Source of the DNA: Thermoleophilaceae bacterium
Lineage (GTDB): Bacteria > Actinomycetota > Thermoleophilia > Solirubrobacterales > Thermoleophilaceae
DNA length: 64,000 bases
NCBI GenBank assembly: GCA_030447725.1
Contig: JAUJOQ010000007.1
Coordinates: 42,870 to 106,869 of the forward strand
Direction: 5' to 3'
Shown here one piece after another: positions 34,171-62,561 of the stretch. Each line of letters starts with the position of its first letter. The stretch's first letter is position 1. The notes below the pieces were generated by a model. That model was not told where the DNA came from. It worked only from the letters and a program-made list of their open reading frames with translations, and searched no databases. Both the position numbers and the translations under genes were made by a program.

Positions 34171-34905
34171 TCAGCGTCCGCCAGCTGGGGGTTCGGCGCC
34201 CGGCTTGTGAGCCGCGAGCGCGACGTGGCGCACCGACCAGCCGGCGCGCGCATGGAGCTTGAAGCGACCTCGTTCGTCGATCCGATCGAACCCCGCGGTG
34301 GCCAGCATCGCCTTCCACGCGCGCACGTTCGGCTCCCAGAAGACGACCGCCGCGTCCCTGGCGGCCCGCCATCGCGCGACCGGAAACGGCAGGAGGTTGA
34401 GGAGGGGGTCGAAGGACTCCACCGATATGAAAGTGCCCCGGCAGAGGTTGGCGATCCGCTCGATCGCCAGCGCCTGGTCGCGCAAGTGGATGAGCACCGA
34501 GCCGCAGAAGACCAGATCGAACGTGCCGAGATCGTCGGGTAGCGCGTGATAGATGGACCTGCTGACCCGCTCGACGTTCGACCCGAAGGCCTCCTTGGCC
34601 AGCGCAAAGCCCGCGCCCCGCGGCGTCTCGGGGAACGTGTCCGGACGGCGGTCGGCCGGCCAGTCCAGATCGCGTTCGTCGTCGAGGTCGAGCGCCATGA
34701 CCTCGGCGCCGCGCCGCTCCATCTCGAAGGCCCAGAATCCGTCCCAGGTGCCGACGTCGAGGGCGCGCATCCCTTCCATCCGCTCCGGCAGGCCGTAGCG
34801 GTGAACGACGCCCCGAAGGTCGAACATCCCGGGGGTGACGTACCCGGGGGCGAGCTCCAGCGTGTGGTACCAGGTGAGCTCCTCGGCCCTCTGCACGGCG
34901 TCCAC
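34171..34905 (-). CDS. Class I SAM-dependent methyltransferase, CmoB/DUF1698-like WYHT family, paralog A
   Basis: GTG start. TWYHTLELAPGYVTPG, ALDVGTWDGFWAFEMERRGAAEVMALDL, FDLVFCGSVLIHLRD. Confidence 0.75.
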   Translation of the reverse strand: MDAVQRAEELTWYHTLELAPGYVTPGMFDLRGVVHRYGLPERMEGMRALDVGTWDGFWAFEMERRGAEVMALDLDDERDLDWPADRRPDTFPETPRGAGFALAKEAFGSNVERVSRSIYHALPDDLGTFDLVFCGSVLIHLRDQALAIERIANLCRGTFISVESFDPLLNLLPFPVARWRAARDAAVVFWEPNVRAWKAMLATAGFDRIDERGRFKLHARAGWSVRHVALAAHKPGAEPPAGGR

Positions 34906-34934
34906 GGCGGTGGACCGTACTATGGCGCCCGCTC

Positions 34935-35633
34935 ATGCTCGCTTCCAGCTCCAGGCGAATCGCCGAGCGCCTCGGAACCGACGATGTGGTTCTCGACGTC
35001 GGTGCGTGGGGGCGGCCCTTCAGACGCGCAGACTGGGTGATGGACCTCATGCCCTACGAGACCCGGGGGCTCTACGGCCACGACGGTGAGGGGCCGGAGC
35101 GGTTCTCCGCGGGCACATGGATACAGCGCGACATCTGCGACCGCACTCCTTTCCCGTTCGACGACGACCAGGTCGACTTCGCGATCTGCTCACACACGCT
35201 CGAGGACGTGCGTGATCCCGTCTGGGTGTGCTCGGAGCTGGCGCGCGTCGCCAGGGCCGGGTACATCGAAGTGCCATCCCGGCTGGAGGAGCAGAGCTTT
35301 GGCTTCCAGGGGCCGTGGGTGGGCTGGGGCCACCACCGCTGGCTGATCGAGGTCGACCACGAGCGCATCGAGTTCGTGTTCAAGCACCACGTCCTCCATG
35401 GCCGCGCGAGCGATCACTTCCCGGCCGGCTTCCATGACCTGCTCAGTGAGGAGGAGCGGGTCGAGACCCTGTGGTGGGAGGGCTCCTTCGAGGCCACCGA
35501 GCGGGTGATGACCTCGGCGGAGGAGCTCGACCCCTACCTCGCCGAGTTCGTGAGCCGGGAGCTTGCTGCCCGGCCGCCCGTGCGGCGCAGGCGGCCCCGC
35601 CTGCGGCTGCGACTCCGGCGCGGTTGCGGCTAG
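34935..35633 (+). CDS. SAM-dependent methyltransferase (Methyltransf_11/23-like)
   Basis: VVLDVGAWGRP... and VDFAICSHTLEDVRDPVWVCSELARVARAGYIEVP. Arg-rich C-terminus. Confidence 0.65.
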   Translation: MLASSSRRIAERLGTDDVVLDVGAWGRPFRRADWVMDLMPYETRGLYGHDGEGPERFSAGTWIQRDICDRTPFPFDDDQVDFAICSHTLEDVRDPVWVCSELARVARAGYIEVPSRLEEQSFGFQGPWVGWGHHRWLIEVDHERIEFVFKHHVLHGRASDHFPAGFHDLLSEEERVETLWWEGSFEATERVMTSAEELDPYLAEFVSRELAARPPVRRRRPRLRLRLRRGCG

Positions 35634-36586
35634 GCCTCGGCGGCGGTCTGAGCCGCGGCGCGGACCTCATGGCGCACGTGCTCGGGAGCTCCCCGCTCGG
35701 GGAAGGGGATCTCCACCCGGTCGAAGTCCCGCGGCACGATGGTCCGTCCGAACACCGACCGCGCTTCGTCGAGCACCTCCCCTCCCCCGTAGCGAGAGGA
35801 CAGATGCGTGAGCGCCAGCAGGCCGACCTCGGCCCCCGCGGCTAGCTCGGCCGCGCCGCGGGCGGTCGAGTGTCCGGTCTCCCTCGCCCGGCCGGCCTCC
35901 TCCTCCATGAAGGTGGCCTCGTGCACGAGCAGGTCCGCGCCGTGCGCCACCGCCCGCGTCATGTCGGAGGGCGCGGTGTCGCCCGTGAGCACGATCGTCC
36001 GGCCACGGCGGGGATCGCCGAGCACCTGATCGGGGGTCGCGTGGCCGACGGTCTCTCCACGCTGCAGCCGGCCGAAGTCGGGCCCCGGCGAGACCCCGAG
36101 CTCTCTGGCGCGCCCTTCATCGAAGCGTCCCGGGCGCGCGTCCTCGATCAGGGCGTACCCGAGCGCGGTAATTCCGTGGTCGACCGCGAAGGCAGCGATC
36201 CGGTAGCCGTCGCCGTCCAGCTCGTGGCCCGGCTCGAGCTGGCGCAGGTGAACCTCGTAGGAGGTCCGCCCCACCACGGGACGCAGGGCGGCGAACATCC
36301 GCCCGAGCCCGATCGGGCCGTACACGTGCAGGGGCCGTTCGCGACCCATCAGGCCATAGGTCTTCAGCAGGCCGGGCAGCCCCAGGAAATGGTCGGCATG
36401 AAAGTGGGTGACGAACACCTCGTCTATCTCGACGAGGCCCACGGAGCGAATCAGCTGACGCTGGGTGCCCTCCCCGCAGTCGAAGAGCAACCGGTCGCCG
36501 CCGCGGCGGATCAGCGTGGCGGGAAGGCCACGGCGCACGGTGGGGGCCGAGCCGGCGGTGCCCAGGAAGAGAACGTCGAGATCCAC
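35630..36586 (-). CDS. rnz: Ribonuclease Z
   Basis: LFLGTAGSAPT..R......I......LFDCGEGTQRQL and THFHADH. Confidence 0.85.
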   Translation of the reverse strand: MDLDVLFLGTAGSAPTVRRGLPATLIRRGGDRLLFDCGEGTQRQLIRSVGLVEIDEVFVTHFHADHFLGLPGLLKTYGLMGRERPLHVYGPIGLGRMFAALRPVVGRTSYEVHLRQLEPGHELDGDGYRIAAFAVDHGITALGYALIEDARPGRFDEGRARELGVSPGPDFGRLQRGETVGHATPDQVLGDPRRGRTIVLTGDTAPSDMTRAVAHGADLLVHEATFMEEEAGRARETGHSTARGAAELAAGAEVGLLALTHLSSRYGGGEVLDEARSVFGRTIVPRDFDRVEIPFPERGAPEHVRHEVRAAAQTAAEA

Positions 36587-36598
36587 GGGCGCCTGTCG

Positions 36599-37087
36599 TC
36601 AGTCCAGCTCGATCAGCTCGAACTCGACGCTGCCGCCGGTGCAACGGGCCAGGCCCATGGTGTGCGCGCCCGCGCGCCGTCGTTCCGTGGGGCTGCCGGG
36701 ATTGAAGATCTGAAAGCCGTCCTCACGCTCATGCAGGGGGAGATGGGAATGGCCGAAGACCACGGCGTCCGCGTCGGGAAAGCGGCGTCGCATCCGTGCC
36801 AGACGCCTCTTCCGGGGCCCCGCGTCGTGGACCATGGCGATTCGCGCGCCGTCGGCGTCGACAATTCGCGCGGCCGGCAGCCGGCGCGTGAGCTCGTCGT
36901 CGTCCACGTTGCCGTGCACCGCGAGCACCGGAGGGCCGATCCGTTCCATCTCCGCCAGGGTCGTGGCCGTGCTCACATCGCCGGCATGGAGGATCAGGTC
37001 CGTCGTTCCAAGGCGGGCCACGCACGAGTCCGGGAGCCGCCGGGCCCCGCGGGGCATGTGCGTGTCCGATATGACGGCGATCAGCAT
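36599..37087 (-). CDS. YfcE/MJ0936-family metallophosphoesterase
   Basis: MLIAVISDTHMP, HAGD, GNVD and GHSH motifs. Alternative ATG at 37099. Confidence 0.8.
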   Translation of the reverse strand: MLIAVISDTHMPRGARRLPDSCVARLGTTDLILHAGDVSTATTLAEMERIGPPVLAVHGNVDDDELTRRLPAARIVDADGARIAMVHDAGPRKRRLARMRRRFPDADAVVFGHSHLPLHEREDGFQIFNPGSPTERRRAGAHTMGLARCTGGSVEFELIELD

Positions 37088-37116
37088 CTGGAGATCCATC
37101 TAGACTCGGCGCTCGA

Positions 37117-37189
37117 GCGCCCGTAGCTCAGTGGATAGAGCGCTGCCCTCCGGAGGCAGAAGTCGCTGGTTCGAATCCAGCCGGGCGCG
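37117..37189 (+). tRNA. tRNA-Arg (anticodon CCG)
   Basis: Folds as a cloverleaf: acceptor GCGCCCG/CGGGCGC, D arm GCUC-AGUGGAUA-GAGC, anticodon arm CUGCC-CUCCGGA-GGCAG, T arm GCUGG-UUCGAAU-CCAGC, discriminator G. No encoded CCA. Confidence 0.95.
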
Positions 37190-37190
37190 T

Positions 37191-38186
37191 TCAGGCGGCA
37201 GCCCCGCTGAGGCGCTCGCGGTACCAGGCGTAGGTCGTTCCGAGAGCGTCGTCGAGGGTGTGACACGGCGCCCAGCCCAACTCGTCGCGTATGGCGGTGG
37301 AGTCGAGGAACTGACGATCGATCTCACCGTGCGGCGTGCCCTCGCCCTGGATGTCGGGCTCCACGTCGGCCCCCGCGGCGGCAATCAGGCGGTGGACGAT
37401 CTCGAGCACCGACAGTGGCTCGCCCCAGCCACCGTTCCAGGCGCGGCCCCACATCGCCGGGTCGTCCAGCGAGCCGGCGACGGTCAGGTAGCCGTCCACC
37501 GCATCCTCCACGTAGAGGTAGTCCCGCTCAGGAGTTCCGTCCGATCGGATCACAGGCGGCTTGCCTGCGACGAGCGCGCGCGCCGCGTCCGGAACCACCC
37601 GCGACCAGTTGACGTCGCCTCCGCCATAGACGTTGGCGAAGCGCGTGACCGCGACCGGCATGTCGTAGGTCATCGCGTACGAGCGGGCGATCATGTCCGT
37701 GCACGCCTTCGACACGTCGTACGGGTAGCGCGCCTGGAGGGCGAAGTCTTCGCGATAAGGCAGCTCCTCGTGACCACCGTAGGCCTTGTCGGAGGAAGCC
37801 ACGACCACCCGCTTGACGGGGTCGCCCACGACGCCTACAGCTCGGCAGGCTTCGAGCAGGTTGTAGGTCCCACGCACGTTCGTCTCGAAAGTCGAGAGCG
37901 GCGACCGGTTGGCGGTCGCGACGATGGTCTGCGCGCCGAGGTGGAACACGGCGTCGACGGCGTACTCGTTGAGCACCCGCAACAGCGTCTCGTAGGCGAG
38001 CAGATCGGCGAGAACCACCGTACAGCGATCCCCGACGCCGTCGGTCACGAAGCGCGCCTCCGGGTCGACGTCCCTGCGCGGCACCACTACGCGCGCCCCG
38101 GCATCGAGCAGCCGCTCGGCCAGCCACGACCCGATGAAGCCCTGCGCCCCTGTGACCAGCACGGTCTGTCCTCGCCAGCCGGTCAC
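37191..38186 (-). CDS. NAD-dependent sugar-nucleotide 4,6-dehydratase/epimerase (CDP-glucose 4,6-dehydratase-like)
   Basis: VLVTGAQGFIGSWL Rossmann motif, SSDKAYG and YxxxK (YDVSK). The overall pattern is like RfbG. Confidence 0.85.
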   Translation of the reverse strand: MTGWRGQTVLVTGAQGFIGSWLAERLLDAGARVVVPRRDVDPEARFVTDGVGDRCTVVLADLLAYETLLRVLNEYAVDAVFHLGAQTIVATANRSPLSTFETNVRGTYNLLEACRAVGVVGDPVKRVVVASSDKAYGGHEELPYREDFALQARYPYDVSKACTDMIARSYAMTYDMPVAVTRFANVYGGGDVNWSRVVPDAARALVAGKPPVIRSDGTPERDYLYVEDAVDGYLTVAGSLDDPAMWGRAWNGGWGEPLSVLEIVHRLIAAAGADVEPDIQGEGTPHGEIDRQFLDSTAIRDELGWAPCHTLDDALGTTYAWYRERLSGAAA

Positions 38187-38998
38187 AGTCTCGGCTTGGC
38201 GAGCAGGGCTCGGTGTGGCACCCCGGTCCCGCCGGCGAAGGCGCGCTGCAGCATCTGTCCTGCGAGGTGGCGCGGACCGGAACGCCTCGCCTCGAAGGCG
38301 GGGTGGCTCTTTCCGAAACCGAGGACATAAGGCCGCGTCGTCTGCTCGACGGTGAATCCGGCGGCGAAGAGCATCCGCTCATGCCCGGCGGCGTTCGGCA
38401 CCCACCATTGGACCCGTTCCCCGCTTCCGTCGAGCTCGGCGAGGGGGCGTCGAGGGTGCAGCAGCGAAAGCGCCAGCCGTATCTCCTCCGACGACAGGAA
38501 GCTGCCCTTGCAGACGCTCCGGATGGCCTCGAGCGCCCGCAGGGGGTCGCGCAGGTGGAGCAGCAGGGAGCCGCACACCACCGCGTCGAACTCTCCCACG
38601 GTCTCGGGACTCAGCTCGTAGATCGTCATGTCGCGTCGCTCGACCCGCGACTCGAGTGCGACGCGAGCCACATCGAAGCCGCGGGCATGCTCGGGTCCCA
38701 GCCCGTCGATGACCCGCTCCGGGCCCGCCGCGCGGGCGTCGGGAGGCCAGTCCCAGTCATGCGGGTCGGCCACGTCGATCGCCACCACCTCGGCCGCGCC
38801 GCGGCGCTCCAGCTCGAAGGCGAGGTAGCCGTCGTAGGTGCCCACGTCGAGGCAGCGCTTGCCGCGCACGTCGGGCCACGGAAGCACGTCGACGATCGGC
38901 CGGAGGTCGAAATAGCCCGGGGTCTCCATGCCCCCGGGCAGGTCGATCGTGTGGTACCAGGCGGGGACCGACGCGACCTGCTCCGCCAGAGCGGTCAC
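38183..38998 (-). CDS. WYHT-family methyltransferase, paralog B
   Basis: GTG at 38998 in a GTGA overlap with the paralog C stop. AWYHTIDLPGGMETPG, CLDVGTYDGYLAFELERRGAAEVVAIDV, LLLHLRDP. Confidence 0.75.
   Translation of the reverse strand: MTALAEQVASVPAWYHTIDLPGGMETPGYFDLRPIVDVLPWPDVRGKRCLDVGTYDGYLAFELERRGAAEVVAIDVADPHDWDWPPDARAAGPERVIDGLGPEHARGFDVARVALESRVERRDMTIYELSPETVGEFDAVVCGSLLLHLRDPLRALEAIRSVCKGSFLSSEEIRLALSLLHPRRPLAELDGSGERVQWWVPNAAGHERMLFAAGFTVEQTTRPYVLGFGKSHPAFEARRSGPRHLAGQMLQRAFAGGTGVPHRALLAKPRL
38805..38960. repeat. 156-bp perfect direct repeat, unit 1 (in paralog B)
   Basis: Identical by eye to 39614-39769 (CGCTCCAGCTCGAAGGCGAGGTAGCC...GTGTGGTACCAG). Flanking sequence diverges on both sides. 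Confidence 0.85.
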
Positions 38999-39807
38999 AG
39001 CAACACCCGTGGACGCGCCAGCAGGGCAGCATGAGGCACCCCCATCCGGCCGGAGAAGACCGTTCGGAAGGCGCGAAGCGGCAGCTGCCCCAGGCCGCTC
39101 CGGCGCGCCGGATGTCCCTCGCCGAAGGGTTCCGAGTAAGGGGCGGAGCCGCGCAGGATCTCGAAGCCCGCCGCGTAGATCATCCGCCGGTGCCCGACGA
39201 CGTTCGGCACCCACCACTGGAGCTGCTCGCCGCTGCCGTTGAGCCGTGCCAGTGGACGCCTGGGATGTGCGACCGACAGCACGAGGTCGATCTCCTCCGA
39301 GGACATGAAGAAGCCGTCGCACACCATCCGGATCCGCTCGAGGGCGCGAAGCGGGTCCCGGAGATGCAGCATCAGCGAGCCGCAGACCACGACGTCGAAG
39401 GTGCCGACCCGCTCGGGACTCAGCTCATAGACGCTCATGTCCACCTTCTCCACAGCTGACCCGAGCCCCGCTCGCGCGGTCCGAAAGCCCGCGCCCTTCT
39501 CGGGTCCTGCCAGTTTCGCAAGCCTCTCCCCGCCCTGCGCACGGACATCCGGCGGCCAGTCCCAATCCTCGTGGTCAGGGATGTCGAGGGCAACGACCTC
39601 GGCCGCCCCGCGACGCTCCAGCTCGAAGGCGAGGTAGCCGTCGTAGGTGCCCACGTCGAGGCAGCGCTTGCCGCGCACGTCGGGCCACGGAAGCACGTCG
39701 ACGATCGGCCGGAGGTCGAAATAGCCCGGGGTCTCCATGCCCCCGGGCAGGTCGATCGTGTGGTACCAGAGCGGGACGGCCCCGATCGCCTGCCTCAGCT
39801 CCGTCAC
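38995..39807 (-). CDS. WYHT-family methyltransferase, paralog C (tandem duplicate of B)
   Basis: GTG at 39807 in a GTGA overlap with the upstream stop. LWYHTIDLPGGMETPG... Shares a 156-bp perfect repeat with paralog B. Confidence 0.75.
   Translation of the reverse strand: MTELRQAIGAVPLWYHTIDLPGGMETPGYFDLRPIVDVLPWPDVRGKRCLDVGTYDGYLAFELERRGAAEVVALDIPDHEDWDWPPDVRAQGGERLAKLAGPEKGAGFRTARAGLGSAVEKVDMSVYELSPERVGTFDVVVCGSLMLHLRDPLRALERIRMVCDGFFMSSEEIDLVLSVAHPRRPLARLNGSGEQLQWWVPNVVGHRRMIYAAGFEILRGSAPYSEPFGEGHPARRSGLGQLPLRAFRTVFSGRMGVPHAALLARPRVLL
39614..39769. repeat. 156-bp perfect direct repeat, unit 2 (in paralog C)
   Basis: Identical by eye to 38805-38960. Confidence 0.85.
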
Positions 39808-40667
39808 GGCACCAGCCCCTCGACGAAGGGCACCTCGAGCACCTTCTCGTGCGCTATCGGGCCATGCCCGAAGTAGCGGTCCTCCCCGAACAGCTCGCCG
39901 TGGTCGGAGGTCACGACTACCCACGTGTCCTGGGGCAGCAGCTCGAAGAGCTGCGCGAAGACACCGTCCAGGTGCTCGACGGCCTTGATCTGGCGGGCGT
40001 GCAGGTCCTTCAGCGCCGTCTCGTCGAAGAACTCGGGCGCGTCGAGGCCGTGCCCCTCATCGTCGAGTCGCTTGAAGACGCCATGGACCCCGGAGATGTG
40101 CGGCCACTCGCGGGGGTCTTCGTGAGACAGCGCGTACGGATAGTGGGTCTCGCCTGTGTTGAGCAGGTAGAAGGAGGGCCGGTCCTCGCTGAACTCCAGC
40201 TCGTCGAGCATCGCCGCCATGTCGTTGTGCTTGGGCATGAGGCGGTAGGAGTCGAAGTCGCGGTTGATCACGGTGTGCTCGTTGAGCACCGGCATGGAGA
40301 CCCTCGCGTGCGTGCGATAGCCGAGCCTGTGCTTCAGGTAGGTGGGGAGGAAGATCGATGGCAGGAAGGAGCGGAACTCGATTCCGCTCACTCCCAGCCG
40401 CTCGCCGTAGCGCAGGAAGTCGCGCTTGTAGTACTCGGAGGCGTAGACCTGCGGCGGGTTCGTGTGTGGCAGCAGCCCCATCAGCAGGTTGAGGTGCGAC
40501 GGGGCCGTCCAGGTCGCGTACGAGAAGCGGCGCTCCAGCGTGCCCAGCGTGGCGAGTGTCTGCGGCTGCGCCTCGACCCAGGAGTCGTAGCGCAGACTGT
40601 CGAGGATCACGATGACGAAGTTGCGCGCCCTTGCCGGCGGAGTGACTGGCGAGTCCAGAGCGTTCAT
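39804..40667 (-). CDS. Alkaline-phosphatase-superfamily (sulfatase-like) enzyme, short paralog AP1
   Basis: ATG at 40667 within ORF 39804..42194. VIVILDSLRYD metal site, TWTAPSHLNLLMG nucleophile motif, VVVTSDHGELFG. Confidence 0.7.
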   Translation of the reverse strand: MNALDSPVTPPARARNFVIVILDSLRYDSWVEAQPQTLATLGTLERRFSYATWTAPSHLNLLMGLLPHTNPPQVYASEYYKRDFLRYGERLGVSGIEFRSFLPSIFLPTYLKHRLGYRTHARVSMPVLNEHTVINRDFDSYRLMPKHNDMAAMLDELEFSEDRPSFYLLNTGETHYPYALSHEDPREWPHISGVHGVFKRLDDEGHGLDAPEFFDETALKDLHARQIKAVEHLDGVFAQLFELLPQDTWVVVTSDHGELFGEDRYFGHGPIAHEKVLEVPFVEGLVP

Positions 40668-42984: not shown

Positions 42985-43074
42985 CGTAGGCCGAGTCCGC
43001 CCGCGTGCTGGGCTGTTGGCGCTGCTCTGTGCGCTTTGCTGCCCACCAGGCGGCGTATAGTTGCCACGGCCAGG

Positions 43075-50525: not shown

Positions 50526-50562
50526 CGGCGCGGCAGTGTACTGACGCGAGCGGCGCAACCGG

Positions 50563-51798: not shown

Positions 51799-51872
51799 GA
51801 CTAACACCCCTTCAAATCGAAGAACCTCCGCCGCTTGCGCTGTGACGGAGGCTCTGATCTGAGGAGCTTCGC

Positions 51873-51988: not shown

Positions 51989-52094
51989 CGTACGGCTATG
52001 TCAGCGGTGAACAATAGCGCTCGTCCTGACGGATGCAAGGCTTACAATCGGGTTTCGATGCCGATGACGTCAGACGACCCCCTCAGTACGGGCG

Positions 52095-54906: not shown

Positions 54907-55701
54907 GTGGAACGGCGCTTCTACAGCCCCGTGCCTGACCTCGAGACGCTGCCCGGGGACGTCTTCAGCCGCGAGAGCGGGCTGGCCGGCATCCACCTCG
55001 ACACGGCGGCACACATGGCGTTCGCCGAGGGCAGTCTCGCCCCATACGTGCGCGAGCTCGACGAGCGCCCCAGGGGCTTCCCCTTCGCGAACGAGTTCTA
55101 CGCAACCGGCGACGCGCACCTGGCATACGCGATGGTGCGCCACCTTCGGCCCGCGCAGGTGCTCGAGCTGGGCTCGGGCTACTCCACGCTGGTGATGGCG
55201 ATGGCCTGCGAGTCCAACGCCGCCGAGGGCGCCCGGGCCACCTACACCGCCTATGACCCCTACCCCACCCGGCTGCTGGACGACCCACCCGCCGGCCTCA
55301 CCGCCTACCACGCCCTGCCGGCCCAAGAGGTGCCGCTAGCGGAGTTCGCGGCACTCGGCACGGGTGACGTGCTGTTCGTCGACACCTCCCACACGGTCAA
55401 GCTCGGCGGAGACGTCAACCGCGTGGTGCTCGATGTGCTGCCGCGGCTGGCGCCGGGCGTGCACGTGCACTTCCACGACATCTGGCTTCCCTTCGAGTAC
55501 CACCCCGAGCTCGTACGCAATCTGCGGCTCTTCTGGGCCGAGCAGTATCTGCTCCAGGCGTTCCTGGCGATGAACCGGGGATACGAAGTCGTGCTCGCCA
55601 CGCACGCCGCCCGAATGCGCGAGCCGGACCGCTTCCGCGCGCTGATTCCGCGCTGGACCCCGGACCTCTACCCCACCTCGTTCTGGGTCTGCCGGACCTG
55701 A
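54907..55701 (+). CDS. Class I SAM-dependent methyltransferase (Methyltransf_24-like)
   Basis: FYSPVPD..., VLELGSGYST, LFVDTSH. The frame is open and coding-like upstream to CTG 54826 (see findings). Confidence 0.7.
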   Translation: MERRFYSPVPDLETLPGDVFSRESGLAGIHLDTAAHMAFAEGSLAPYVRELDERPRGFPFANEFYATGDAHLAYAMVRHLRPAQVLELGSGYSTLVMAMACESNAAEGARATYTAYDPYPTRLLDDPPAGLTAYHALPAQEVPLAEFAALGTGDVLFVDTSHTVKLGGDVNRVVLDVLPRLAPGVHVHFHDIWLPFEYHPELVRNLRLFWAEQYLLQAFLAMNRGYEVVLATHAARMREPDRFRALIPRWTPDLYPTSFWVCRT

Positions 55702-56978
55702 GGTCGACCGGCGCGGGCGCGCAGGCGGTCCCAGGCGGGGATCAGCACCGTGAGAGCCAACAGCATGATCGGCGGCTCGAGCGGCAGCCGGTAGCGAGTG
55801 GCGGCCACCGTGGTGAAGACCACCGAGGCCGCCAGTGCGGCCGCCAGCAGCGGCCACACCAGGGTCCTGCGACGCCGCAGACGCCAGAGGCCCACGAGAG
55901 CCGCGGCAAGCAGAACCCAGTACATGCCGAGCCCCACCGCCGCAACCCACCGCGTGCGCCCTTCGAAGTCGACCGCCAGCAGGGCGTTGGACGGACGCCA
56001 GATGTCCCAGGTGCGCACCAGGCCGTTCCAGAAGAACGCCTCGGGAAGGGCGCTCGGGTTATCCCTCACGTACTCCTCGGCCCGGTCCTGAAGCGCGGTG
56101 CGCAGCTCGGCATCCGCGAGCGGGCGGTCAGGATCGAACAGATCCCTGTCGCGATCGTTGAGCGGGCGCCATGCCCACGGCAGCCTGGGGTCGTCCTTCG
56201 CCTCGTCGTTGAAGGTGCCGTACGCCGCCGCGTCCTGCATCGAGATCGGGATGAAGCCGTCGGCCACCGCGTAGTTGCGAGCCGTCCAAGGCGCGATCAC
56301 GAGGAGGGCGACGATGACCGTGACAGCGGCCAGTGCGATCCCCCGCCGAGCGCCCGCGGTCAGCCACCAGCCCACGAAGATCAGCGCGAAGAGAAAGAAC
56401 TGGGTCGGCCTCACCAGCATCCCCATGCCCATGAGAACGCCGACCGCAGCGGCACGGCGAGGAGAAGGTTGACGTTCCAGCGCCAGGATCATCACCGCCA
56501 GCGCCAGTGGCAGCGCGAAGCCCTCCGGATACAGCCGCAGCTCCCACTGCCACATGTGGGGGTAGAACGCCGCCAGGCCGGCCGCGGTGAGCGCCAGACG
56601 GCGATCGAACAGACGACTGGCCAACGCCCAGATCAGGAGGATGGTGACCGGGCCGATCAGCGCCTGCGCCAACAGCAGCTTGGTGACGCTGACGCCGAGC
56701 ACCGAGTAGACCACACCGACGAACGCTGGGTAGCCGGGGGCCTTCCACATCCCCTCGTGGATCTCGCCGTAGGGCCGATCGGTGTAGAACCACTTGCCCT
56801 CGGCGGCCAGCACGCCCTGCAGGTGGTACTCGGGCTCATCGCCCGCGAGCGTGTGGCCCTCCGTGGCGAGCACATAGACGATTCGCAGCGCCAGGCCGAA
56901 GGCCGCGATCCCGAACAGGATCAGCAGCTCCCGGCGATCGACTTCACGCCCGGCCAGACGGCCCATCAGGGCGGTCAC
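55668..56978 (-). CDS. GT-C fold membrane glycosyltransferase (ArnT/PMT-like, GT39/GT83)
   Basis: 436 aa with at least 10 TM helices and an early-loop DEPEY motif (DE.. typical of GT-C). Its 3' end overlaps the convergent methyltransferase by 34 nt. Confidence 0.75.
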   Translation of the reverse strand: MTALMGRLAGREVDRRELLILFGIAAFGLALRIVYVLATEGHTLAGDEPEYHLQGVLAAEGKWFYTDRPYGEIHEGMWKAPGYPAFVGVVYSVLGVSVTKLLLAQALIGPVTILLIWALASRLFDRRLALTAAGLAAFYPHMWQWELRLYPEGFALPLALAVMILALERQPSPRRAAAVGVLMGMGMLVRPTQFFLFALIFVGWWLTAGARRGIALAAVTVIVALLVIAPWTARNYAVADGFIPISMQDAAAYGTFNDEAKDDPRLPWAWRPLNDRDRDLFDPDRPLADAELRTALQDRAEEYVRDNPSALPEAFFWNGLVRTWDIWRPSNALLAVDFEGRTRWVAAVGLGMYWVLLAAALVGLWRLRRRRTLVWPLLAAALAASVVFTTVAATRYRLPLEPPIMLLALTVLIPAWDRLRARAGRPQVRQTQNEVG

Positions 56979-56994: not shown

Positions 56995-58368
56995 TCATGG
57001 CCTCGCCGAGGCGGACGCCAGCGCCGAAGCCGCTTTGCGGGCGAGCCTGACCGCGTAGTTGGTGCCCCGGTCCTCGGGGTAGATCTGGGTGGTGTTCACG
57101 AGCATCAGCCCGGGCACACCGGTCTCCATCGGCGGTATGCGATCTCGGTAGCCCACGGCCACGATCGGCTGGGCGTCGGGCTCGCGGAAGAGCCAGCTCG
57201 CGCGTACCCAGGAGGGGTCGTACTGCGGGTTCACACGGCGCAGACCTGGCTCGTAACGGGCCAGCAGCATCTCTGCATCGAGCGACTGCAGCGGATCGTC
57301 GGGAGCCGTGTAGTTGGCCACATAGAGGAAGCGGCGATCGCCGTAGGCCTCCGGGCTCACGAGGTTGGTCTGCTCGATCAGCCCGACGAAGGGCATCCCC
57401 GGATCCGCCACGTTGGTCCAGTAGAAAGGCGAGAACCGGCGGTCCATCTCCAGCACCAGGCAGACCGCGGAGTGATACTCGATCGAGGTCAGCCGCTCCA
57501 GGTAGCCCGGTGTGAGCGAGCCCGCCAGGTCGTCCTCGAGCAAGCGCCCGAAGACAGGGTTGGACACGGTGGCCATCACCGCGTCATAGGCTTCCTCCCC
57601 GTCGGTCGGGTAGGCGCGCGGGTCGTGACCGATGCGGAAAGAGCTGTTCGCGCCGATGGTCACTGAAAATTGCTCGCCGCGGCGTGCAATCCGGGCCGCC
57701 GGCCGGTCGATCAACACCCGGCCACCGCGGCCCTCTATCTCCTCACGCAAGCGCATGAAGAGGGTCTCGAAGGTGCCCCGCGGGTAGCCGAGCATCTCCG
57801 TGCGTGCTTCAGCGCCCTTGATCTGGCGCCTCAACGTCAGCTTGCCCCAAAGCCATGCCATCGAGATGTCCTCGGCACGGTCGCCGAACTTGCCGCGCAG
57901 CAGCGGCCCCCAGACGCGCTCCCAGGCGTGCCTTCCCATCGAGGAGAGGATCCAGTCCTGGGCGGTGCGGCCCTCGAAGGGCTCGACCGCCTTGTGGCGG
58001 CGCTGGAGCATGAGCAACGCAAGGCCCATGCGCACACGTGCCGGGAAGGGGAGCGGGGAGAAGCGCAGTAGATCCAGTGGAGAGTTGAACGAGTGGCTGG
58101 CGCCCTCGGCGAAGAACGCCACGCTCGACCGATGCCAACCGATCTCCACACCCAGCTCGGCGCACAGCGACGCGATGTCATCGTCGCTGGTGAACAGGTG
58201 GTGGTAGTAGCGTTCGAGCAGCACGCCTGCGCCGACGTCGTAGGTGGCGGCCTGCCCGCCCAGTCCCGGCCAACGCTCGTACACGTCGACCTTCCAGCCG
58301 GCCCGTGCGAGCTCATAGCCCGCGGTCAGGCCGCCCACGCCGGCGCCGATCACAGCGACGGTGCTCAC
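56995..58368 (-). CDS. FAD/NAD(P)-dependent oxidoreductase (amine-oxidase/phytoene-desaturase-like fold)
   Basis: GTG at 58368 in a GTGA overlap. VAVIGAGVGGLTAGYELARAGWKVDVYE..PGLGG dinucleotide-binding motif. Confidence 0.8.
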   Translation of the reverse strand: MSTVAVIGAGVGGLTAGYELARAGWKVDVYERWPGLGGQAATYDVGAGVLLERYYHHLFTSDDDIASLCAELGVEIGWHRSSVAFFAEGASHSFNSPLDLLRFSPLPFPARVRMGLALLMLQRRHKAVEPFEGRTAQDWILSSMGRHAWERVWGPLLRGKFGDRAEDISMAWLWGKLTLRRQIKGAEARTEMLGYPRGTFETLFMRLREEIEGRGGRVLIDRPAARIARRGEQFSVTIGANSSFRIGHDPRAYPTDGEEAYDAVMATVSNPVFGRLLEDDLAGSLTPGYLERLTSIEYHSAVCLVLEMDRRFSPFYWTNVADPGMPFVGLIEQTNLVSPEAYGDRRFLYVANYTAPDDPLQSLDAEMLLARYEPGLRRVNPQYDPSWVRASWLFREPDAQPIVAVGYRDRIPPMETGVPGLMLVNTTQIYPEDRGTNYAVRLARKAASALASASARP

Positions 58369-59270
58369 AGCACGCGCGGCCGGGCCAGGACCGCGACGCG
58401 GTCGCGAAAGTCGGGCCACACCAGACGGTCGGCCAGTCCCAGCCGCTCCGCCACCGCCACCGTTAAGCGCGCAACCGCAGGACTGTAGCCCTCGAGGCGC
58501 TCGAGGTAGTAGCGCACGGTGAACGCCTTCGGGGCGGTGCCGAGCCACTCGACGGTGAAGCCGTGGCGCTCCAGCAGACGGGTGATGCTGCGGCGATTGA
58601 AGTACTGCACGTGGGTAGGGATCACCGACCACCATCGCGCGCCGAGCACGCGCGCCACGCGGCTGCCGGCGTCAGGGAGGGTCAGGTAGAGAACGCCACG
58701 GGGGCGCAACAGGTCATAGATGCGGTCCAGGGCGGCCCCGGGGTCGGGCAGGTGCTCGATCACGTCACCGAGCACGACGGCATCGAAGGCGCTTCGGGGA
58801 AGGTCCGCGGACTCCAGCGTGCCCGTCTGAACACGAAGTCCGAGCCGCTCGCGGGCAAAGCCCGCCGCGAAGACGGACGGCTCGACGCCCTGCGTCTCCC
58901 ATCCGCCTCGCTCGGCCTCCGACATCAAGAAGCCCACCCAGCAACCCACGTCGTAGAGGGTTCGCTGCCCCTCGCTCTGCGCCCGCAAGTGGCGCCCGAT
59001 GCAGTCGAGCGCGCGGCGCGCGGTGGCGCGCTGGCCCGTCTCCTCCGCGAGGTAGGCGCCCTCGTCGACCTCGCCATAGGCCTCCTGCAACTCCACCTCG
59101 GCGGGGAACTCGGCCACCTGCGCGTGGGTGCACGCCGTGCAGCGCACCAGGTCGGCGGGCGCGGTGCCGTAGGCCGTGGTGGTGGCCACAAGGCTCACAA
59201 CCTCGTCGCGGGCCACCGTCAGGTGCGGTTCGAGCGAGGTGGCGCCGCAGGCCGCGCAGGCAGGGTTCAC
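58365..59270 (-). CDS. Class I SAM-dependent methyltransferase with N-terminal Cys4 zinc ribbon
   Basis: CAACG...CTAC ribbon, LYDVGCWVGFL, VLGDVIEHLPDP. Confidence 0.8.
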   Translation of the reverse strand: MNPACAACGATSLEPHLTVARDEVVSLVATTTAYGTAPADLVRCTACTHAQVAEFPAEVELQEAYGEVDEGAYLAEETGQRATARRALDCIGRHLRAQSEGQRTLYDVGCWVGFLMSEAERGGWETQGVEPSVFAAGFARERLGLRVQTGTLESADLPRSAFDAVVLGDVIEHLPDPGAALDRIYDLLRPRGVLYLTLPDAGSRVARVLGARWWSVIPTHVQYFNRRSITRLLERHGFTVEWLGTAPKAFTVRYYLERLEGYSPAVARLTVAVAERLGLADRLVWPDFRDRVAVLARPRVL

Positions 59271-60007
59271 AGGTTCCGGCTGTCGAGAGCGGCCAGCCGT
59301 CGACGCATGCGGAGGACCTCACCGAAGGCGGTGGCGATCACATGTGGAGTGGCGCCGCGGGCCTCGCCCGCACGGCGCGGTCGGTGGTGCACCCCCACCT
59401 CCACCACGCTCGCCCCACGACGACCCAGCTTGACCATCAGCTCGGTGTTCACCATCGCGCCGACGGACTCGATGTCCACGTCGCCGAGCACTCGCCGGTC
59501 GAACAACTTGAAGGCGCAGTCGATGTCGCGCACCGGCACGTAGAACAACATCCGCACGAGCACGTTCCAGGCGTAGGCCATCGCCCGTCGCGATGGAGGG
59601 TCCTGGCGGTTGATCCTGTAGCCGGCAACGACATCGACCGTACCCGCATAGGGCAAAAAGCCCTCGAGCTCCTCGGGGTCGAACTGCAGGTCGGCGTCGG
59701 TGAAGAAGACGTAGTTGAGCCGGCTGGCGAGAAAGCCGGTGCGCAGCGCCTCGCCATAGCCGCGGTTGCGGCCGTGGCTGATCACCCGCACTCGAGGGTC
59801 GCCCGAGCCGATCTCACGGACGATCGTGGCGGTGCGGTCGCGCGAGCCGTCGTCGACGACGATCAACTCGTGCTCGGCAAACAGGCGCTCCGCAGCGGTG
59901 GTGGCCTCGGCCACAGCCTGCGCCACGTTCGCTTCCTCGTTGAAGGCCGGCAGCACGACCGACACCGTCAAGGGCGGCTTGGCGGGGTCCATGCAGCGGG
60001 TGATCAT
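59267..60007 (-). CDS. GT2 polyprenyl-phosphate glycosyltransferase (DPM1/GtrB/ArnC-like)
   Basis: VSVVLPAFNEE, LIVVDDGSRD, NRGYG, FTDADLQ. Alternative ATG at 59992. Confidence 0.85.
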   Translation of the reverse strand: MITRCMDPAKPPLTVSVVLPAFNEEANVAQAVAEATTAAERLFAEHELIVVDDGSRDRTATIVREIGSGDPRVRVISHGRNRGYGEALRTGFLASRLNYVFFTDADLQFDPEELEGFLPYAGTVDVVAGYRINRQDPPSRRAMAYAWNVLVRMLFYVPVRDIDCAFKLFDRRVLGDVDIESVGAMVNTELMVKLGRRGASVVEVGVHHRPRRAGEARGATPHVIATAFGEVLRMRRRLAALDSRNL

Positions 60008-60057
60008 AGAGAGGGGCGAGCCGTCGCCCGGCGCCTCGATCTAGAGTGTCCGGCTCC

Positions 60058-61437
60058 ATGCCCCCCGCCATCGATCCTGCGATCTTCAAGGCCTACGACG
60101 TGCGTGGCCTGTACGGCGAGCAGATCGACGAGGACGTCGCGTACCGCCTCGGCCGAGGCTTCGCGCAGGTGCTGGCCGACATGTACGACTGCCGGCCGGC
60201 TGAGCTGCGGCTCGCTCTGGGACGCGACATGCGACTGGAGGCTCCCGCTCTCTCGGAGCGCTACGTGCAGGGCATGCGCGACGAGGGCGCGCACGTGCTC
60301 GACATCGGGATGGTGGGCACCGAGATGCTCTATTGGACGGTGGGCTCCCGTGAGCTCGACGGTGGGCTCATGTGCACGGCGTCCCACAACCCGAAGGCCT
60401 ACACGGGCGCGAAGCTCGTGGGCCGCGCCGCCCTCCCTCTCTCCGGCGACTCTGGGATCGGCGAGCTGTGCGAGATCTTGACGAGCGGCGAGCCCGGCCC
60501 GGCGGCTGAGCCGGTGGGTGGCCACGAGACCGAGGACGTGAGCGAGCCCTTTCGCGCCGATGCCCTCGAGTTCGTCGACGCTCCCGGGATCCGGCAGATG
60601 AAGGTTGTGCTCGACGGCGGCAACGGGATGGCGGGCCAGATGTGCGGGCCGATCCTCGACGGGCTGGCGCTCGAGCAGATCCAGCTCTACTGGAAGCCCG
60701 ACGGCGAGCTCCCCGACCACGAGCCCAACCCGCTGCTCGAGGAGAACCGCCGTCTGATCATCGACAAGGTCATGTCCGAGAGCGCCGACCTCGGCATCGC
60801 CTGGGATGGCGACGCCGACCGCTGCTTCTTCATCGACGACACCGGGCGCTTCGTGGACGGCGACTTCCTCACCGCGCTGCTCGCGCAGTCCATCCTGGCG
60901 AAGGAGCCGGAGGCCACGATCCTCTACGACGTCCGTGCCTCCCGAGCCGTGGCCGACCTGGTGGAGGCCGCGGGCGGCACCGCGCACGTCAACCGGGTGG
61001 GCCACGCCTTCTTCAAGGCGCGCATGCGCGAGCAGGGAGCCGCGTTCGGCGGCGAGGTGTCGGGCCACTACTACTTCCGTGACTTCTACTGCGCCGACTC
61101 GGGCACCCTGCCGGCGCTGCTGATCCTCGAGCTGCTCTCGGCGAAGCGAAAGAAGATGAGCGAGCTGCTCGAGCCGCTGCGGTCGCGCTACTTCATCTCC
61201 GGCGAGATCAACTCGGAGGTGGCGGACTCCGACGCGAAGATGGAGGAGATCGCCTCGAAATACTCCGACGGCTCGGTCACCGACCTCGACGGGATCTCGG
61301 TCGACTACGAGGACTGGCACTTCAACGTGCGCGCCTCAAACACCGAGCCGCTGCTACGGCTCAACCTCGAATCGCTCGTCTCGGAGGACCACATGGCCGA
61401 GAAGCGCGACGAGGTGCTGGCCCTCATCCGCGCCTGA
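60058..61437 (+). CDS. Phosphomannomutase/phosphoglucomutase
   Basis: FKAYDVRG, TASHNPKAYTG (catalytic Ser), DGDADR, GGEVSGH. GTG at 60046 is an alternative start. Confidence 0.92.
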   Translation: MPPAIDPAIFKAYDVRGLYGEQIDEDVAYRLGRGFAQVLADMYDCRPAELRLALGRDMRLEAPALSERYVQGMRDEGAHVLDIGMVGTEMLYWTVGSRELDGGLMCTASHNPKAYTGAKLVGRAALPLSGDSGIGELCEILTSGEPGPAAEPVGGHETEDVSEPFRADALEFVDAPGIRQMKVVLDGGNGMAGQMCGPILDGLALEQIQLYWKPDGELPDHEPNPLLEENRRLIIDKVMSESADLGIAWDGDADRCFFIDDTGRFVDGDFLTALLAQSILAKEPEATILYDVRASRAVADLVEAAGGTAHVNRVGHAFFKARMREQGAAFGGEVSGHYYFRDFYCADSGTLPALLILELLSAKRKKMSELLEPLRSRYFISGEINSEVADSDAKMEEIASKYSDGSVTDLDGISVDYEDWHFNVRASNTEPLLRLNLESLVSEDHMAEKRDEVLALIRA

Positions 61438-61454
61438 GCGACAGGCAGCCTGCT

Positions 61455-62561
61455 TCACCCGCGGCGCTCGAGCACGTCGTCGTAGATTCGCTGGTAGGCG
61501 GCCACACTCCGCTCGCGCGAGAAGTCCAGGGCGCGTACGCGACACGCCTCAGGCACGGCGGGGTCGCCGGTGAGGTCGAGCACCCCGAGCAGGGCTCGGG
61601 CGAGGTCACGTTCCTCGCCTGCGAAGAGCCTGCCGATGCCCGGGCGGTCGACGATCTCGGCGATCCCCCCGGTGTCGGTCCCGACGACCGGAGTGCCACA
61701 GGCGAGGGCCTCCGCGAGCACGAGCCCGAACGCCTCCCCGACACTGGGCAGGACCGACACCCAGCTCTCGCGGTAGGCGTCCACCAGAGCCGACGTGTCG
61801 TCGACGACTGCCAACTCGACCCCTTCGACTCCTTGCACGACTCGCGCAGCGACTTCCGGATCGCCCGGATCGGACAGCACGAGCCGGGCGTCGGGGCGGT
61901 CGCGCCGCACGAGGGCGAACGCCCGAACCAGCATGTCGACCCGCTTCGCAGGGGCGGCGACGGCCGCCGCACAGAAGATCGTCGGCGCCGGATGCCTGGC
62001 TCCGCCGGGGGTGAAGGACTCCACGTCGACTGGCGGTGCGATCACTGGAGTCTCGATCCCGAAGGCCGACCTGAACTCCTCCGCCACCGGCCGGCTGAGC
62101 GAGACCACCTGGTCGCATCCATCGATCGCGGCGCGCGTCATGGCGACGCGCCTCGAGCGGGCCCGGAGATGGGAGAGCAGCGGTATGCCCATGTAGGAGA
62201 ACACCGTCGGGCGGCCGGTGACGCGTCCCCAGCGCGCAGCCGCGAGCGCGTCGGGCATGTGAACCGGCTGGGCGAGGTCGAAGCGACCCAGCCGTAGAGC
62301 GGCGTAGCTCAGCGGCACATGGGCGCTCTCATCGTCAAAGCCGTGCGACACCAGGGGTGCGTTCGGAGGCCGGGGGCTGCGCCACACCGTCAAGCCGTCC
62401 TCGCGCGTCAACCGGGGGGCTCCCCGGCGACTGGTGAGGAGCGCCGGCCTGTGCCCCTCGGCGATCAGTCCTGTCGCCAGTTCGCGGACGAAACGCTCGG
62501 CACCCCGTCGCGTCTCGGGCCAGAAGCGCGGGGACATGAATGCGATTCGCAGCGAGCTCAA
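61455..62561 (-). CDS. Glycosyltransferase family 4 (GT-B)
   Basis: LRIAFMSPRFWPE..GAERF N-terminus and the EAFGLVLAEALACGTPVV motif. Confidence 0.85.
   Translation of the reverse strand: MSSLRIAFMSPRFWPETRRGAERFVRELATGLIAEGHRPALLTSRRGAPRLTREDGLTVWRSPRPPNAPLVSHGFDDESAHVPLSYAALRLGRFDLAQPVHMPDALAAARWGRVTGRPTVFSYMGIPLLSHLRARSRRVAMTRAAIDGCDQVVSLSRPVAEEFRSAFGIETPVIAPPVDVESFTPGGARHPAPTIFCAAAVAAPAKRVDMLVRAFALVRRDRPDARLVLSDPGDPEVAARVVQGVEGVELAVVDDTSALVDAYRESWVSVLPSVGEAFGLVLAEALACGTPVVGTDTGGIAEIVDRPGIGRLFAGEERDLARALLGVLDLTGDPAVPEACRVRALDFSRERSVAAYQRIYDDVLERRG

Follow-up and report, generated by a model that had tools for sequence, protein, structure and literature searches.

The window considered here is a stretch of 64,000 nucleotides from a Thermoleophilaceae bacterium (assembly GCA_030447725.1, contig JAUJOQ010000007.1, positions 42,870 to 106,869 of the forward strand), in which a dense array of methyltransferase (MT) and glycosyltransferase (GT) genes occupies positions 34171-62561 and surrounds a methionine unit composed of an S-adenosylmethionine (SAM)-I riboswitch and the genes metM and metO. 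With a probability of about 0.6, this array represents a hypervariable envelope-glycan locus typical of the lineage of this soil bacterium, the cassettes of which accreted at the junctions of a backbone, with metM-metO belonging to the housekeeping genes. New about it is the unusual load of MTs, from an uncharacterised family (here termed WYHT), in a variable glycan locus of known kind, while metM-metO is already known. Members of the Thermoleophilia (Solirubrobacterales, Thermoleophilales) rank among the commonest actinobacteria of soils and desert crusts and have been little studied. Unusually MT-rich, strain-variable glycan modules are a recurring feature of the Thermoleophilia, and methylated, more hydrophobic glycans could affect desiccation tolerance, phage recognition and soil organic matter.

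Conserved backbone and inserted glycan cassettes

The genes were called by third-position GC content (GC3) and checked against Pfam and NCBIfam (release 20). The ten class I MTs predicted by a preceding sequence-only reading of the region, five of the WYHT family and five others, are all present at or near the positions given there, and so are the four GT2, two GT4 and one GT-C enzymes, the Wzx flippase, the 4,6-dehydratase of the short-chain dehydrogenase/reductase (SDR) type, the phosphomannomutase/phosphoglucomutase (PMM/PGM) and the O-acyltransferase. Ten MTs among ~31 genes are far above chance expectation (binomial P = 4e-13 to 1.5e-8 for background frequencies of 1-3 % per gene). The genes that were scanned in the first 34 kb included no MT; positions 1-34170 are occupied by housekeeping genes (dapA/B, pnp, ribF, truB, infB, nusA, dtd, coaBC, gmk, carAB, pyrC, pyrB and pyrR).

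The organization of the locus was compared in a set of 80 metagenome loci anchored on MetM (50-94 % MetM identity), the counts of loci with MTs or with retained rnz, pyrR or yfcE referring to the 44 in which the flank spans 6 kb or more. In many of these relatives the backbone MBL-pmm-corA-[riboswitch]metM-metO-(dehydratase)-tRNA-Arg-yfcE-rnz-pyrR is contiguous and free of GT and MT genes (L090, L098, L108, L110-L122, L130, L131, L133 and L145); L130 carries the part MBL-pmm-corA-metM-metO-dehydratase, and L090 and L098 the part metM-metO-dehydratase...yfcE-rnz-pyrR. Homologues of the MTs occur in only 5 of the 44 loci (L085, L089, L100, L109 and L161). At least 15 of the 44 retain rnz, pyrR or yfcE, and synteny of rnz with pyrR and metM extends to at least 15 relatives. 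Furthermore, corA is the divergent partner of metM in many relatives, MBL is syntenic with pmm in eight loci (L085, L130, L069, L020, L041, L049, L055 and L076), and tRNA-Arg stands beside yfcE in 8 relatives. The backbone proteins of the window are 62-84 % identical to those of metagenome-assembled genomes (MAGs) labelled Thermoleophilaceae or Solirubrobacterales.

In the window, this backbone is broken at four junctions: between pyrR and rnz (by WYHT1 and MT11), between the dehydratase gene and metO (by 12 kb, from WYHT2 to GT4_a), between corA and pmm (by 7 kb, from GT2_c to GT2_ppm) and between pmm and MBL (by GT4_b, which is absent there in L085 and L130). The junction downstream of metO has been used repeatedly (L085, L089, L100 and L161). 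The comparison of locus boundaries suggested together with the sequence-only reading hence yields an architecture of backbone plus insertions, with glycan cassettes at no fewer than four backbone junctions. That reading had taken rnz, tRNA-Arg and corA as housekeeping genes interspersed in the locus; their presence is borne out, the relation is the reverse, the housekeeping genes forming the backbone and the glycan cassettes the insertions.

The closest relative, L085, has corA, metM, metO, pmm and MBL at 85-92 % identity. Its right-hand glycan block is 65-77 % identical and lacks GT4_b, GT-C and MT24, and in its block beside metO the homologues are 51-57 % identical and differently ordered. 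This contrast is the pattern of a hypervariable glycan locus within conserved flanks. GC content and GC3 of the glycan genes equal those of the flanks, and a foreign origin by composition was rejected on this ground. No repeat of the tRNA-Arg 3' end was found within the window (≤3 mismatches), and no integrase or transposase in the Pfam scans. Native composition and the lack of both att repeat and integrase argue for shuffling within the lineage and not for a recent foreign island. A genomic island integrated at tRNA-Arg was likewise rejected for these reasons, and also since the tRNA gene itself belongs to the backbone.

A second set, anchored on WYHT, comprised 80 loci from GTDB species genomes, of which the 52 loci of at least 15 kb were counted. 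The 80 loci derive from Solirubrobacterales, Thermoleophilaceae and some Acidimicrobiia, and include the cultured Conexibacter sp. DBS9H8 (L051), Patulibacter defluvii (L064) and P. medicamentivorans (L062), which would allow the predicted O-methylated and acetylated envelope sugars to be tested for. GT homologues are found in 35 of the 52 loci, other MTs in 30, Wzx in 20 and the acetyltransferase (AcT) in 19, with up to 11 MT matches per 20 kb. The recurrent core reads WYHT5-MT12-GT2_a-AcT(-MT11/WYHT3)-GT2_b-GT4_a, its module WYHT5-MT12-GT2_a-AcT being present in at least 15 relatives. Orthologues of MT12 (53-69 % identity) adjoin those of WYHT5, MT11-like homologues (47-72 % identity) adjoin WYHT or GT4 genes in L001, L008, L013, L051, L053, L056, L070, L100 and L161, and the arrangement around AP_b, a sulfatase-family gene, is orthologous in L001. 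A Pfam census of 141 genes without homologue in the window, taken from 27 WYHT loci, adds further class I MTs, RmlD, epimerases, GT-C enzymes of the PMT_2/PMT type, amine oxidases, sulfatase-family proteins and sulfotransferases. The MT-rich glycan module is thus both conserved and hypervariable across the Thermoleophilia. Sulfotransferases (Sulfotransfer_3/Sulfotransfer_1; three members) and sulfatase-family proteins (five members) of related GT-rich loci hint that some of the related glycans may be sulfated. Four genes for methionine sulfoxide reductase (PMSR) lie near related loci.

The WYHT family and the methionine unit

The five WYHT paralogues (WYHT1, 34171..34905, −; WYHT2, 38183..38997, −; WYHT3, 38995..39807, −; WYHT4, 42115..42984, +; WYHT5, 44626..45459, +) were recognized by Pfam (WYHT1 by Methyltransf_23 with 36 bits) and align over their full length. 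The N-terminal W-Y-H-T motif is invariant among them, and SAM motif I (LDVGTxDG) as well as a conserved HLRDP segment are also common to all five. Any two are 36-46 % identical, the tandem pair WYHT2/WYHT3 excepted (68 %). A homology search, in which WYHT4 is identical to the entry P0001, returned >1,300 relatives within the set of candidates that were scored, with Thermoleophilia and Acidimicrobiia MAGs as the main named sources, and an exhaustive profile search yielded 905 clusters (50 % identity) at E ≤1e-30 and 4,375 at E ≤1e-10.

The AlphaFold2 model of WYHT4 (pLDDT 93) has as its closest Foldseek match the tRNA U34 carboxymethyltransferase CmoB (Pfam Methyltransf_9/DUF1698; E 1e-12, TM-score ~0.6, 16-19 % identity), followed by ToxA, the sugar O-methyltransferase EvdMO1 and AtmM/RebM, with UbiG also among the matches. 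The N-terminal 80 residues of WYHT weakly match the models of CmoB and of TIGR04290 (Rta_06860). CmoB models, however, score only 21-26 bits on WYHT proteins against cutoffs of 275 (TIGR00452) and 209 (NF011650), TIGR04290 attains 51-74 bits against a cutoff of 300, mostly over model positions 2-83, and the genomic context of GT, Wzx and dehydratase genes, the W-Y-H-T motif and the HLRDP segment set WYHT apart from CmoB. As judged from the predicted structure, the WYHT proteins resemble CmoB in fold only. The analysis thereby defines an uncharacterised MT family of CmoB fold that is publicly labelled as a tRNA enzyme: most of the WYHT homologues P0007-P0120 bear the JGI label 'tRNA (mo5U34)-methyltransferase'. 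Given the low CmoB scores and the location of the homologues mostly in glycan loci, these labels are probably a systematic misannotation.

Fusions link WYHT to an EryCIII-like GT1 C-domain (P0214) and to an FkbM methyltransferase (P0138). Other fusions comprise one with a cyclic nucleotide (cNMP)-binding domain and tandem MT pairs of ~600-675 aa (P0226 and P0121/P0124/P0126). In a rough neighbour-joining tree, the WYHT1, WYHT2/3 and WYHT5 clades are almost always found beside GTs, Wzx and the acetyltransferase. WYHT1-clade orthologues were also observed at other backbone junctions, namely beside pmm/MBL (L041 and L076) and beside metM (L069).

The methionine unit, which the sequence-only reading had placed inside the locus, is indeed located there. 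The aptamer of the SAM-I riboswitch (51871..51992, −; RF00162, 77.3 bits against a gathering threshold of 44.4, model positions 1-108) is followed after 72 nt by the ATG of metM at 51798; the spacer contains a CCTCCG...CGGAGG stem and then a T-rich tract. The gene metM (50563..51798, −) codes for a ThrC-like pyridoxal phosphate (PLP) enzyme (PALP, 248 bits), and is followed after 4 nt by metO (50250..50558, −; likely start ATG 50525), the product of which is a sulfur carrier of ThiS/MoaD type (ThiS, 64.5 bits; SAMP1/MoaD models above cutoff) ending in ...AVAGG (Gly-Gly). With 288 bits against a cutoff of 167, metM passes the thrC model TIGR00260, so that automatic pipelines would name it thrC; no MetM-specific model was returned from NCBIfam release 20. 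Misannotation of MetM as ThrC is frequent (10.1101/2024.10.14.618325). MetM and MetO form a thiocarboxylate route from O-phosphohomoserine to homocysteine, which is subject to a SAM riboswitch in Streptomyces albulus (10.1101/2024.10.14.618325, PMC12172450). The window shares with the S. albulus unit the ThrC-like PLP enzyme, the adjacent ThiS-like carrier ending in GG and the upstream SAM riboswitch, and metM is annotated as a putative O-phosphohomoserine-dependent homocysteine synthase. The window unit differs in that the partners Mec and MoeZ were not seen in the window and in the position of the operon at a hot spot of glycan insertion. A scan for sigma-70 promoters and terminators around metM returned nothing, the consensus being probably unsuited to this host.

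Local coupling of the glycan locus to the supply of methionine and SAM, as proposed in the sequence-only reading, did not hold up. The riboswitch-metM-metO unit belongs to the older backbone, which is glycan-free in many relatives. Since GT4_a converges on metO, the control exerted by the riboswitch in the window is confined to metM-metO. The unit is an ordinary, already known homocysteine/methionine unit older than the insertions, and it lies embedded through inherited synteny, at a hot spot of insertion, and not through recruitment; with the coupling explained in this way, the locus becomes less surprising. The riboswitch (RF00162) also occurs in L064, L069 and L070. Two arrangements deviate from the general pattern. 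In a Thermoleophilaceae MAG (L069:12177-14719, OY970394.1), riboswitch, metM, a WYHT gene and metO follow each other on one strand with gaps of ~25-40 nt, the sole such case among ~130 loci examined. Upstream of its WYHT motif, the WYHT frame lacks any ATG, GTG or TTG, which may reflect a CTG start, a long-read assembly error or decay. In Patulibacter defluvii DM4 (L064:13991-16644), riboswitch, metM and metO are followed ~140 nt downstream on the same strand by a Methyltransf_24 homologue, 44 % identical to the gene at 54907 of the window. These two exceptions leave a small probability of real coupling in some lineages.

Predicted glycan pathway and competing explanations

Several operon-like units tie the MT genes to glycan functions. 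AP_a, WYHT3, WYHT2 and the dehydratase gene are joined by three consecutive GTGA stop/start overlaps, with the dehydratase gene as the last; the GTG start of WYHT3 at 39807 overlaps the stop of AP_a, and that of WYHT2 the stop of WYHT3. A second unit, AP_b-WYHT4-wzx-WYHT5, begins with AP_b and has gaps of 10, 51 and 18 nt. A third, GT2_ppm-MT23-FADox-GT-C, has gaps of -4, -4 and 16 nt and ends with GT-C; here the GTG start of FADox at 58368 overlaps the stop of MT23. By hydropathy, no strongly hydrophobic segments were found in the MTs, the GT2/GT4 enzymes and the AP (alkaline phosphatase superfamily) enzymes, except for one each in WYHT5 and GT2_c; the MTs, the GT2/GT4 enzymes and both AP proteins thus look soluble, and Wzx and GT-C look polytopic.

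From these gene contents, the following pathway may be proposed for cassettes that would have accreted, with their GT, MT and modification genes, at several junctions of the older backbone. Soluble GT2 and GT4 enzymes would build an oligosaccharide on a polyprenyl carrier at the cytoplasmic face, from a hexose derived via PMM and a 6-deoxyhexose formed by the dehydratase-like enzyme of CDP-glucose type. Distinct positions would be O-methylated by the WYHT enzymes and the other class I MTs, five soluble proteins each, the hexapeptide transferase would O-acetylate the glycan, and the two soluble AP-superfamily enzymes would add or remodel a phospho- or sulfo-ester, after which the product would be flipped to the other side of the membrane by Wzx. 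A further, independent cassette of translationally coupled genes (GT2_ppm, MT23, FADox and GT-C) would make a modified lipid-linked monosaccharide, to be transferred outside the membrane by GT-C. The product would be a polysaccharide, a glycolipid or a glycoprotein. The methylated glycan of the sequence-only reading, here taken as acylated, possibly phospho- or sulfo-modified and exported, thus remains the best reading by gene context, considering the coupling of WYHT to the dehydratase and AP genes, the operon shared with Wzx and the 35 of 52 loci with GTs; it fits less well with the WYHT4 clade. The same reading had recognised no described pathway in this combination of genes, and indeed none of the GTs or MTs of the locus attains the threshold of a curated NCBIfam equivalog.

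Wzx-dependent loci for O-antigen, capsule or exopolysaccharide (EPS), e.g. with EpsC/EpsD/EpsE of Myxococcus xanthus, have the same mixture of GT2 and GT4, a MOP flippase, an LbH acetyltransferase and sugar-nucleotide enzymes. They are likewise placed between housekeeping genes, with the glycan genes diverging more than the flanks. Unlike them, the window has MTs as ~1/3 of its genes, at least four insertion points and many transcription units, no Wzy, chain-length regulator (PCP) or priming transferase was found, and scores with Eps models are far below the cutoffs. Mycobacterial loci of the glycopeptidolipid (GPL) type pair GTs with several sugar O-methyltransferases. GTs together with several SAM-dependent sugar O-methyltransferases and acyltransferases are also common to the window and to the mycobacterial systems for methylmannose polysaccharide (MMP; MeT1/pMeT3/ManT/MmpH) and methylglucose lipopolysaccharide (MGLP) (PMC9883506). 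In contrast to these mycobacterial systems, no relationship to MeT1 or ManT was detected in the window, nor MmpH, GpgS or a non-ribosomal peptide synthetase (NRPS); Wzx and GT-C would imply export, and the MT family (WYHT) is a different one. A GT2-type polyprenyl-phosphate sugar synthase and a GT-C enzyme, joined in one operon in the window, are also the components of the two-step systems ArnC/ArnT, Ppm1/Pmt and PpgS/Rv3779. The window differs from these by an MT and an FAD oxidoreductase inserted in between with overlapping codons, which suggests that the lipid-linked sugar is modified, and by sub-threshold equivalog scores.

A number of findings weigh against the envelope-glycan locus. The genes switch strand so often that at least 17 transcription units must be assumed. 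In the locus, the dehydratase gene has no nucleotidyltransferase, 4-reductase or epimerase gene as a companion. Neither a Wzy polymerase nor a PCP or a priming phosphoglycosyltransferase (PGT) was found by Pfam among all open reading frames (ORFs) of 34-63 kb, nor did any of the three figure in the list of 25 Pfam families compiled from neighbouring genes of 27 related loci; as a consequence, a polymer is not demonstrated. GT neighbours are missing from 17 of the 52 WYHT loci, and members of the WYHT4 clade frequently stand alone, e.g. beside P450s or aldehyde dehydrogenase, so that the glycan association is strong for most, and not all, of the family. The closest fold to WYHT4 is that of CmoB, and the paper library searched contained no relevant literature on envelope sugars or methylated glycans of Thermoleophilia.

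Instead of a Wzy polymer, the product could be a short glycan destined for the O-glycosylation of proteins, or else a lipoglycan or glycolipid. This alternative, in which nothing but the acceptor departs from the best explanation, appears conceivable, if rather unlikely. It agrees with the missing Wzy, PCP and priming PGT, with a match of Wzx to the O-glycosylation flippase model NF058658, with several GT-C paralogues in relatives, and with the resemblance of PMT_2 GT-C, polyprenyl-phosphate-sugar synthase and PMM to actinobacterial Ppm1/Pmt protein mannosylation. However, the supporting matches, that to NF058658 included, are all sub-threshold, GT-C (436 aa) matches PMT_2 and not the PMT family model, and the genes not found here may be situated in other parts of the 162-kb contig or of the genome. 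A cytoplasmic polymethylated polysaccharide like mycobacterial MMP or MGLP, modulators of fatty-acid metabolism, in place of a surface glycan is highly improbable. Many MTs next to an acyltransferase, PMM and GT4 in an actinobacterial host do recall such compounds, as MMP clusters pair MTs with a GT4-type mannosyltransferase (PMC9883506). On the other hand, Wzx, GT-C and the polyprenyl-phosphate-sugar synthase point to export, MeT1 is not among the PDB chains matched by the WYHT profile at E ≤1, and ManT was not retrieved by GT4_a in PDB at 1e-8. The locus has neither an MmpH-like hydrolase nor any other glycoside hydrolase, the GpgS model NF010496 scores only 56.5 bits on GT2_ppm and 22.7 bits on GT2_c against a cutoff of 262, and ten different MTs argue for many distinct positions rather than one repeated position.

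It is unlikely that the WYHT proteins, and perhaps other MTs, act on tRNA or rRNA, lipids or small molecules, their clustering with GTs merely reflecting an insertion hot spot. CmoB and then the small-molecule MTs ToxA, RebM/AtmM and UbiG as closest structures, the JGI names of many homologues and the solitary WYHT4-clade homologues next to P450s, aldehyde dehydrogenase and similar genes would fit such a role. It conflicts with the low scores of the CmoB models, with the neighbourhood of GTs, Wzx and acetyltransferase in nearly all members of the other clades, with the translational coupling of WYHT to a sugar dehydratase and the operon common with Wzx, with the GT1-WYHT and FkbM-WYHT fusions, and with EvdMO1 being among the matches of WYHT in both fold and sequence. 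Recruitment or retention of the methionine module as a functional part that matches methyl-donor supply to local SAM demand is improbable. The L069 and L064 arrangements speak for it, as do the 6 of the 52 WYHT loci in which metM/metO genes, with varying immediate neighbours, stand no more than 10 kb from WYHT genes. Yet the linkages metM-metO-tRNA-Arg-yfcE-rnz-pyrR and pmm-corA-metM exist without MTs or GTs in many relatives, at MetM identities of up to ~70 % MTs are present only in L109, and an OFF riboswitch that silences metM at high SAM, controlling metM-metO only, represents ordinary feedback; L069 is a single case with an ORF lacking a canonical start. Little credence is likewise given to a broader view, by which the WYHT proteins, with at least 900 clusters at 50 % identity, would constitute a novel and radiating family of sugar O-methyltransferases providing Thermoleophilia with a strain-variable polymethylated envelope glycan, and the placement of metM-metO (in L069 inside the operon) would stem from selection matching methyl demand to supply.

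Gene inventory and transcription units

The leftmost insertion contains, besides WYHT1, the small MT11-like MT (34935..35633, +; weak Methyltransf_11, 25.8 bits), which is conserved in relatives as a frequent partner of WYHT. The following backbone genes are rnz for RNase Z (35630..36586, −; TIGR02651, 294.9 bits against a cutoff of 292.95), yfcE for a YfcE-family phosphoesterase (36599..37099, −; Metallophos_2, 116 bits; TIGR00040) and tRNA-Arg(CCG) (37117..37189, +; ARAGORN and Rfam). The next gene (37191..38186, −) codes for an NDP-hexose 4,6-dehydratase-like SDR of the CDP-glucose type: CDP-glucose 4,6-dehydratases are the top PDB matches (1rkx, 3e-40, and 1wvg), leading by 11 orders of magnitude; the score with the CDP-glucose 4,6-dehydratase model TIGR02622 is sub-threshold (173 bits against a cutoff of 278), and no cytidylyltransferase lies nearby. 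In glycan-free relatives the dehydratase gene is located ~48 nt after metO on the same strand (L090:1865-3147, L130:11244-12527 and L139:807-2094), where it may be co-transcribed with the riboswitch-controlled operon. For a methionine operon such a partner is unusual; the gene is at the same time the 'seed' beside which the glycan block of the window inserted.

The two AP-superfamily enzymes of the sequence-only reading were correctly assigned, and GC3 phase plot and translations resolve them as two divergent sulfatase-family genes. AP_a (39804..40667, −; 287 aa) is a small soluble, STM4013-like member of the sulfatase/alkaline phosphatase superfamily (Sulfatase, 39 bits; NF038075, 62 bits, sub-threshold), and AP_b (40695..42104, +; 469 aa) a soluble sulfatase-family protein (Sulfatase, 109 bits; PDB sulfatases at 1e-16). 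The N-terminus of AP_b contains LVCDTARAD and hence C-x-T-x-R (C-D-T-A-R) instead of the canonical C-x-P-x-R; hydropathy revealed neither a signal nor a transmembrane (TM) segment in AP_b, and no TM segment in AP_a. Formylglycine-dependent type I sulfatases have a C/S-x-P/A-x-R motif and usually a secretion signal, both of which AP_b lacks. A single 796-aa 'membrane-anchored AP enzyme' at 39804-42194(−) was rejected: its first 510 residues correspond to a shadow ORF, the phase of GC3 flips at ~40.65 kb, and a PDB search with the false ORF gave no match. Two antiparallel ORFs of more than 750 aa each, 39804-42194(−) and 39849-42104(+), have 2.3 kb in common and are half gene and half shadow, a trap for length-based ORF calling at 70 % GC. 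Long shadow ORFs are plentiful in the window (G+C content 69.7 %), and three more candidates without family match were dismissed as shadows, i.e. 60004-61320(−) of pmm, 46472-47236(−) of GT2_a and 54089-54850(−) of the MT gene at 54128.

The large insertion continues with the Wzx/MOP flippase gene (43036..44607, +; start at 43036 or 43075; Polysacc_synt_3, 128.5 bits; ~12 TM segments by hydropathy) and, next to WYHT5 as the anchor of the conserved module, the class I MT MT12 (45456..46205, −; Methyltransf_12, 34.8 bits), GT2_a (46223..47212, +; Glyco_tranf_2_3 and Glycos_transf_2; EpsD-like with 136 bits, sub-threshold) and the hexapeptide-repeat O-acetyltransferase AcT (47325..47996, −; weak Hexapep; EpsC, WbbJ and WcaF models at 41-50 bits, all sub-threshold). 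It closes with GT2_b (48045..49076, −; Glycos_transf_2, 60.8 bits) and GT4_a (49039..50253, +; start at 49039 or 49075; Glyco_trans_1_4 and Glycos_transf_1, ~90 bits).

Beyond metM, the backbone gene for the Mg/Co transporter CorA (52095..53090, +; CorA, 214 bits) precedes the right-hand block. This consists of GT2_c (53122..54078, −; Glycos_transf_2, 64 bits), a class I MT (54128..54829, +; Methyltransf_25/11, 78 bits, and weak generic methyltransferase matches in NCBIfam), the Methyltransf_24-family MT MT24 (54907..55701, +; 51 bits) and the four-gene unit on the minus strand. From right to left the latter comprises GT2_ppm (59267..60007; Glycos_transf_2, 103 bits), resembling polyprenyl-phosphate-sugar synthases (ArnC/AglJ/PpgS-like; NF007986, 79 bits, and NF058614, 47 bits, both sub-threshold), the class I MT MT23 with an N-terminal Cys4 ribbon (58365..59270; Methyltransf_23, 82.7 bits), the FAD amine-oxidase-family oxidoreductase FADox (56995..58368; PRK07233 family; Amino_oxidase, 91 bits; NF005560, 420 bits, above cutoff) and the membrane protein GT-C (55668..56978; 436 aa; PMT_2, 50 bits; at least 7 hydrophobic segments). 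The FADox gene and yfcE had been absent from the earlier list of genes. The backbone gene pmm (60046..61437, +; four PGM_PMM domains) is followed by GT4_b (61455..62561, −; Glyco_trans_1_4, 81 bits) and by the backbone gene for an MBL-fold hydrolase (62660..63652, +; NF053820, 113 bits, sub-threshold), which forms the right-hand limit of the locus. Four soil-metagenome runs from one study contain the sequence of the window almost in full, and all runs that contain it are of DNA; RNA runs share ≤5 % of words with it and were not used as transcript evidence.

Start codons of divergent genes are often separated by only 14-49 nt or overlap (34906-34934, 46206-46222 and 49039-49076), those of AP_a and AP_b lying 27 nt apart (40668-40694). 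At such distances, promoters must be situated inside coding sequence, or else the transcripts are leaderless. A single base separates the 3' end of tRNA-Arg(CCG) on the plus strand from the stop codon of the dehydratase gene, which converges on it (37189-37191). At the left-hand limit, pyrR follows the end of WYHT1 after 72 nt in the same orientation (34098-34171), and the WYHT1 transcript could read through into the pyrR-pyrB-pyrC-carAB operon.

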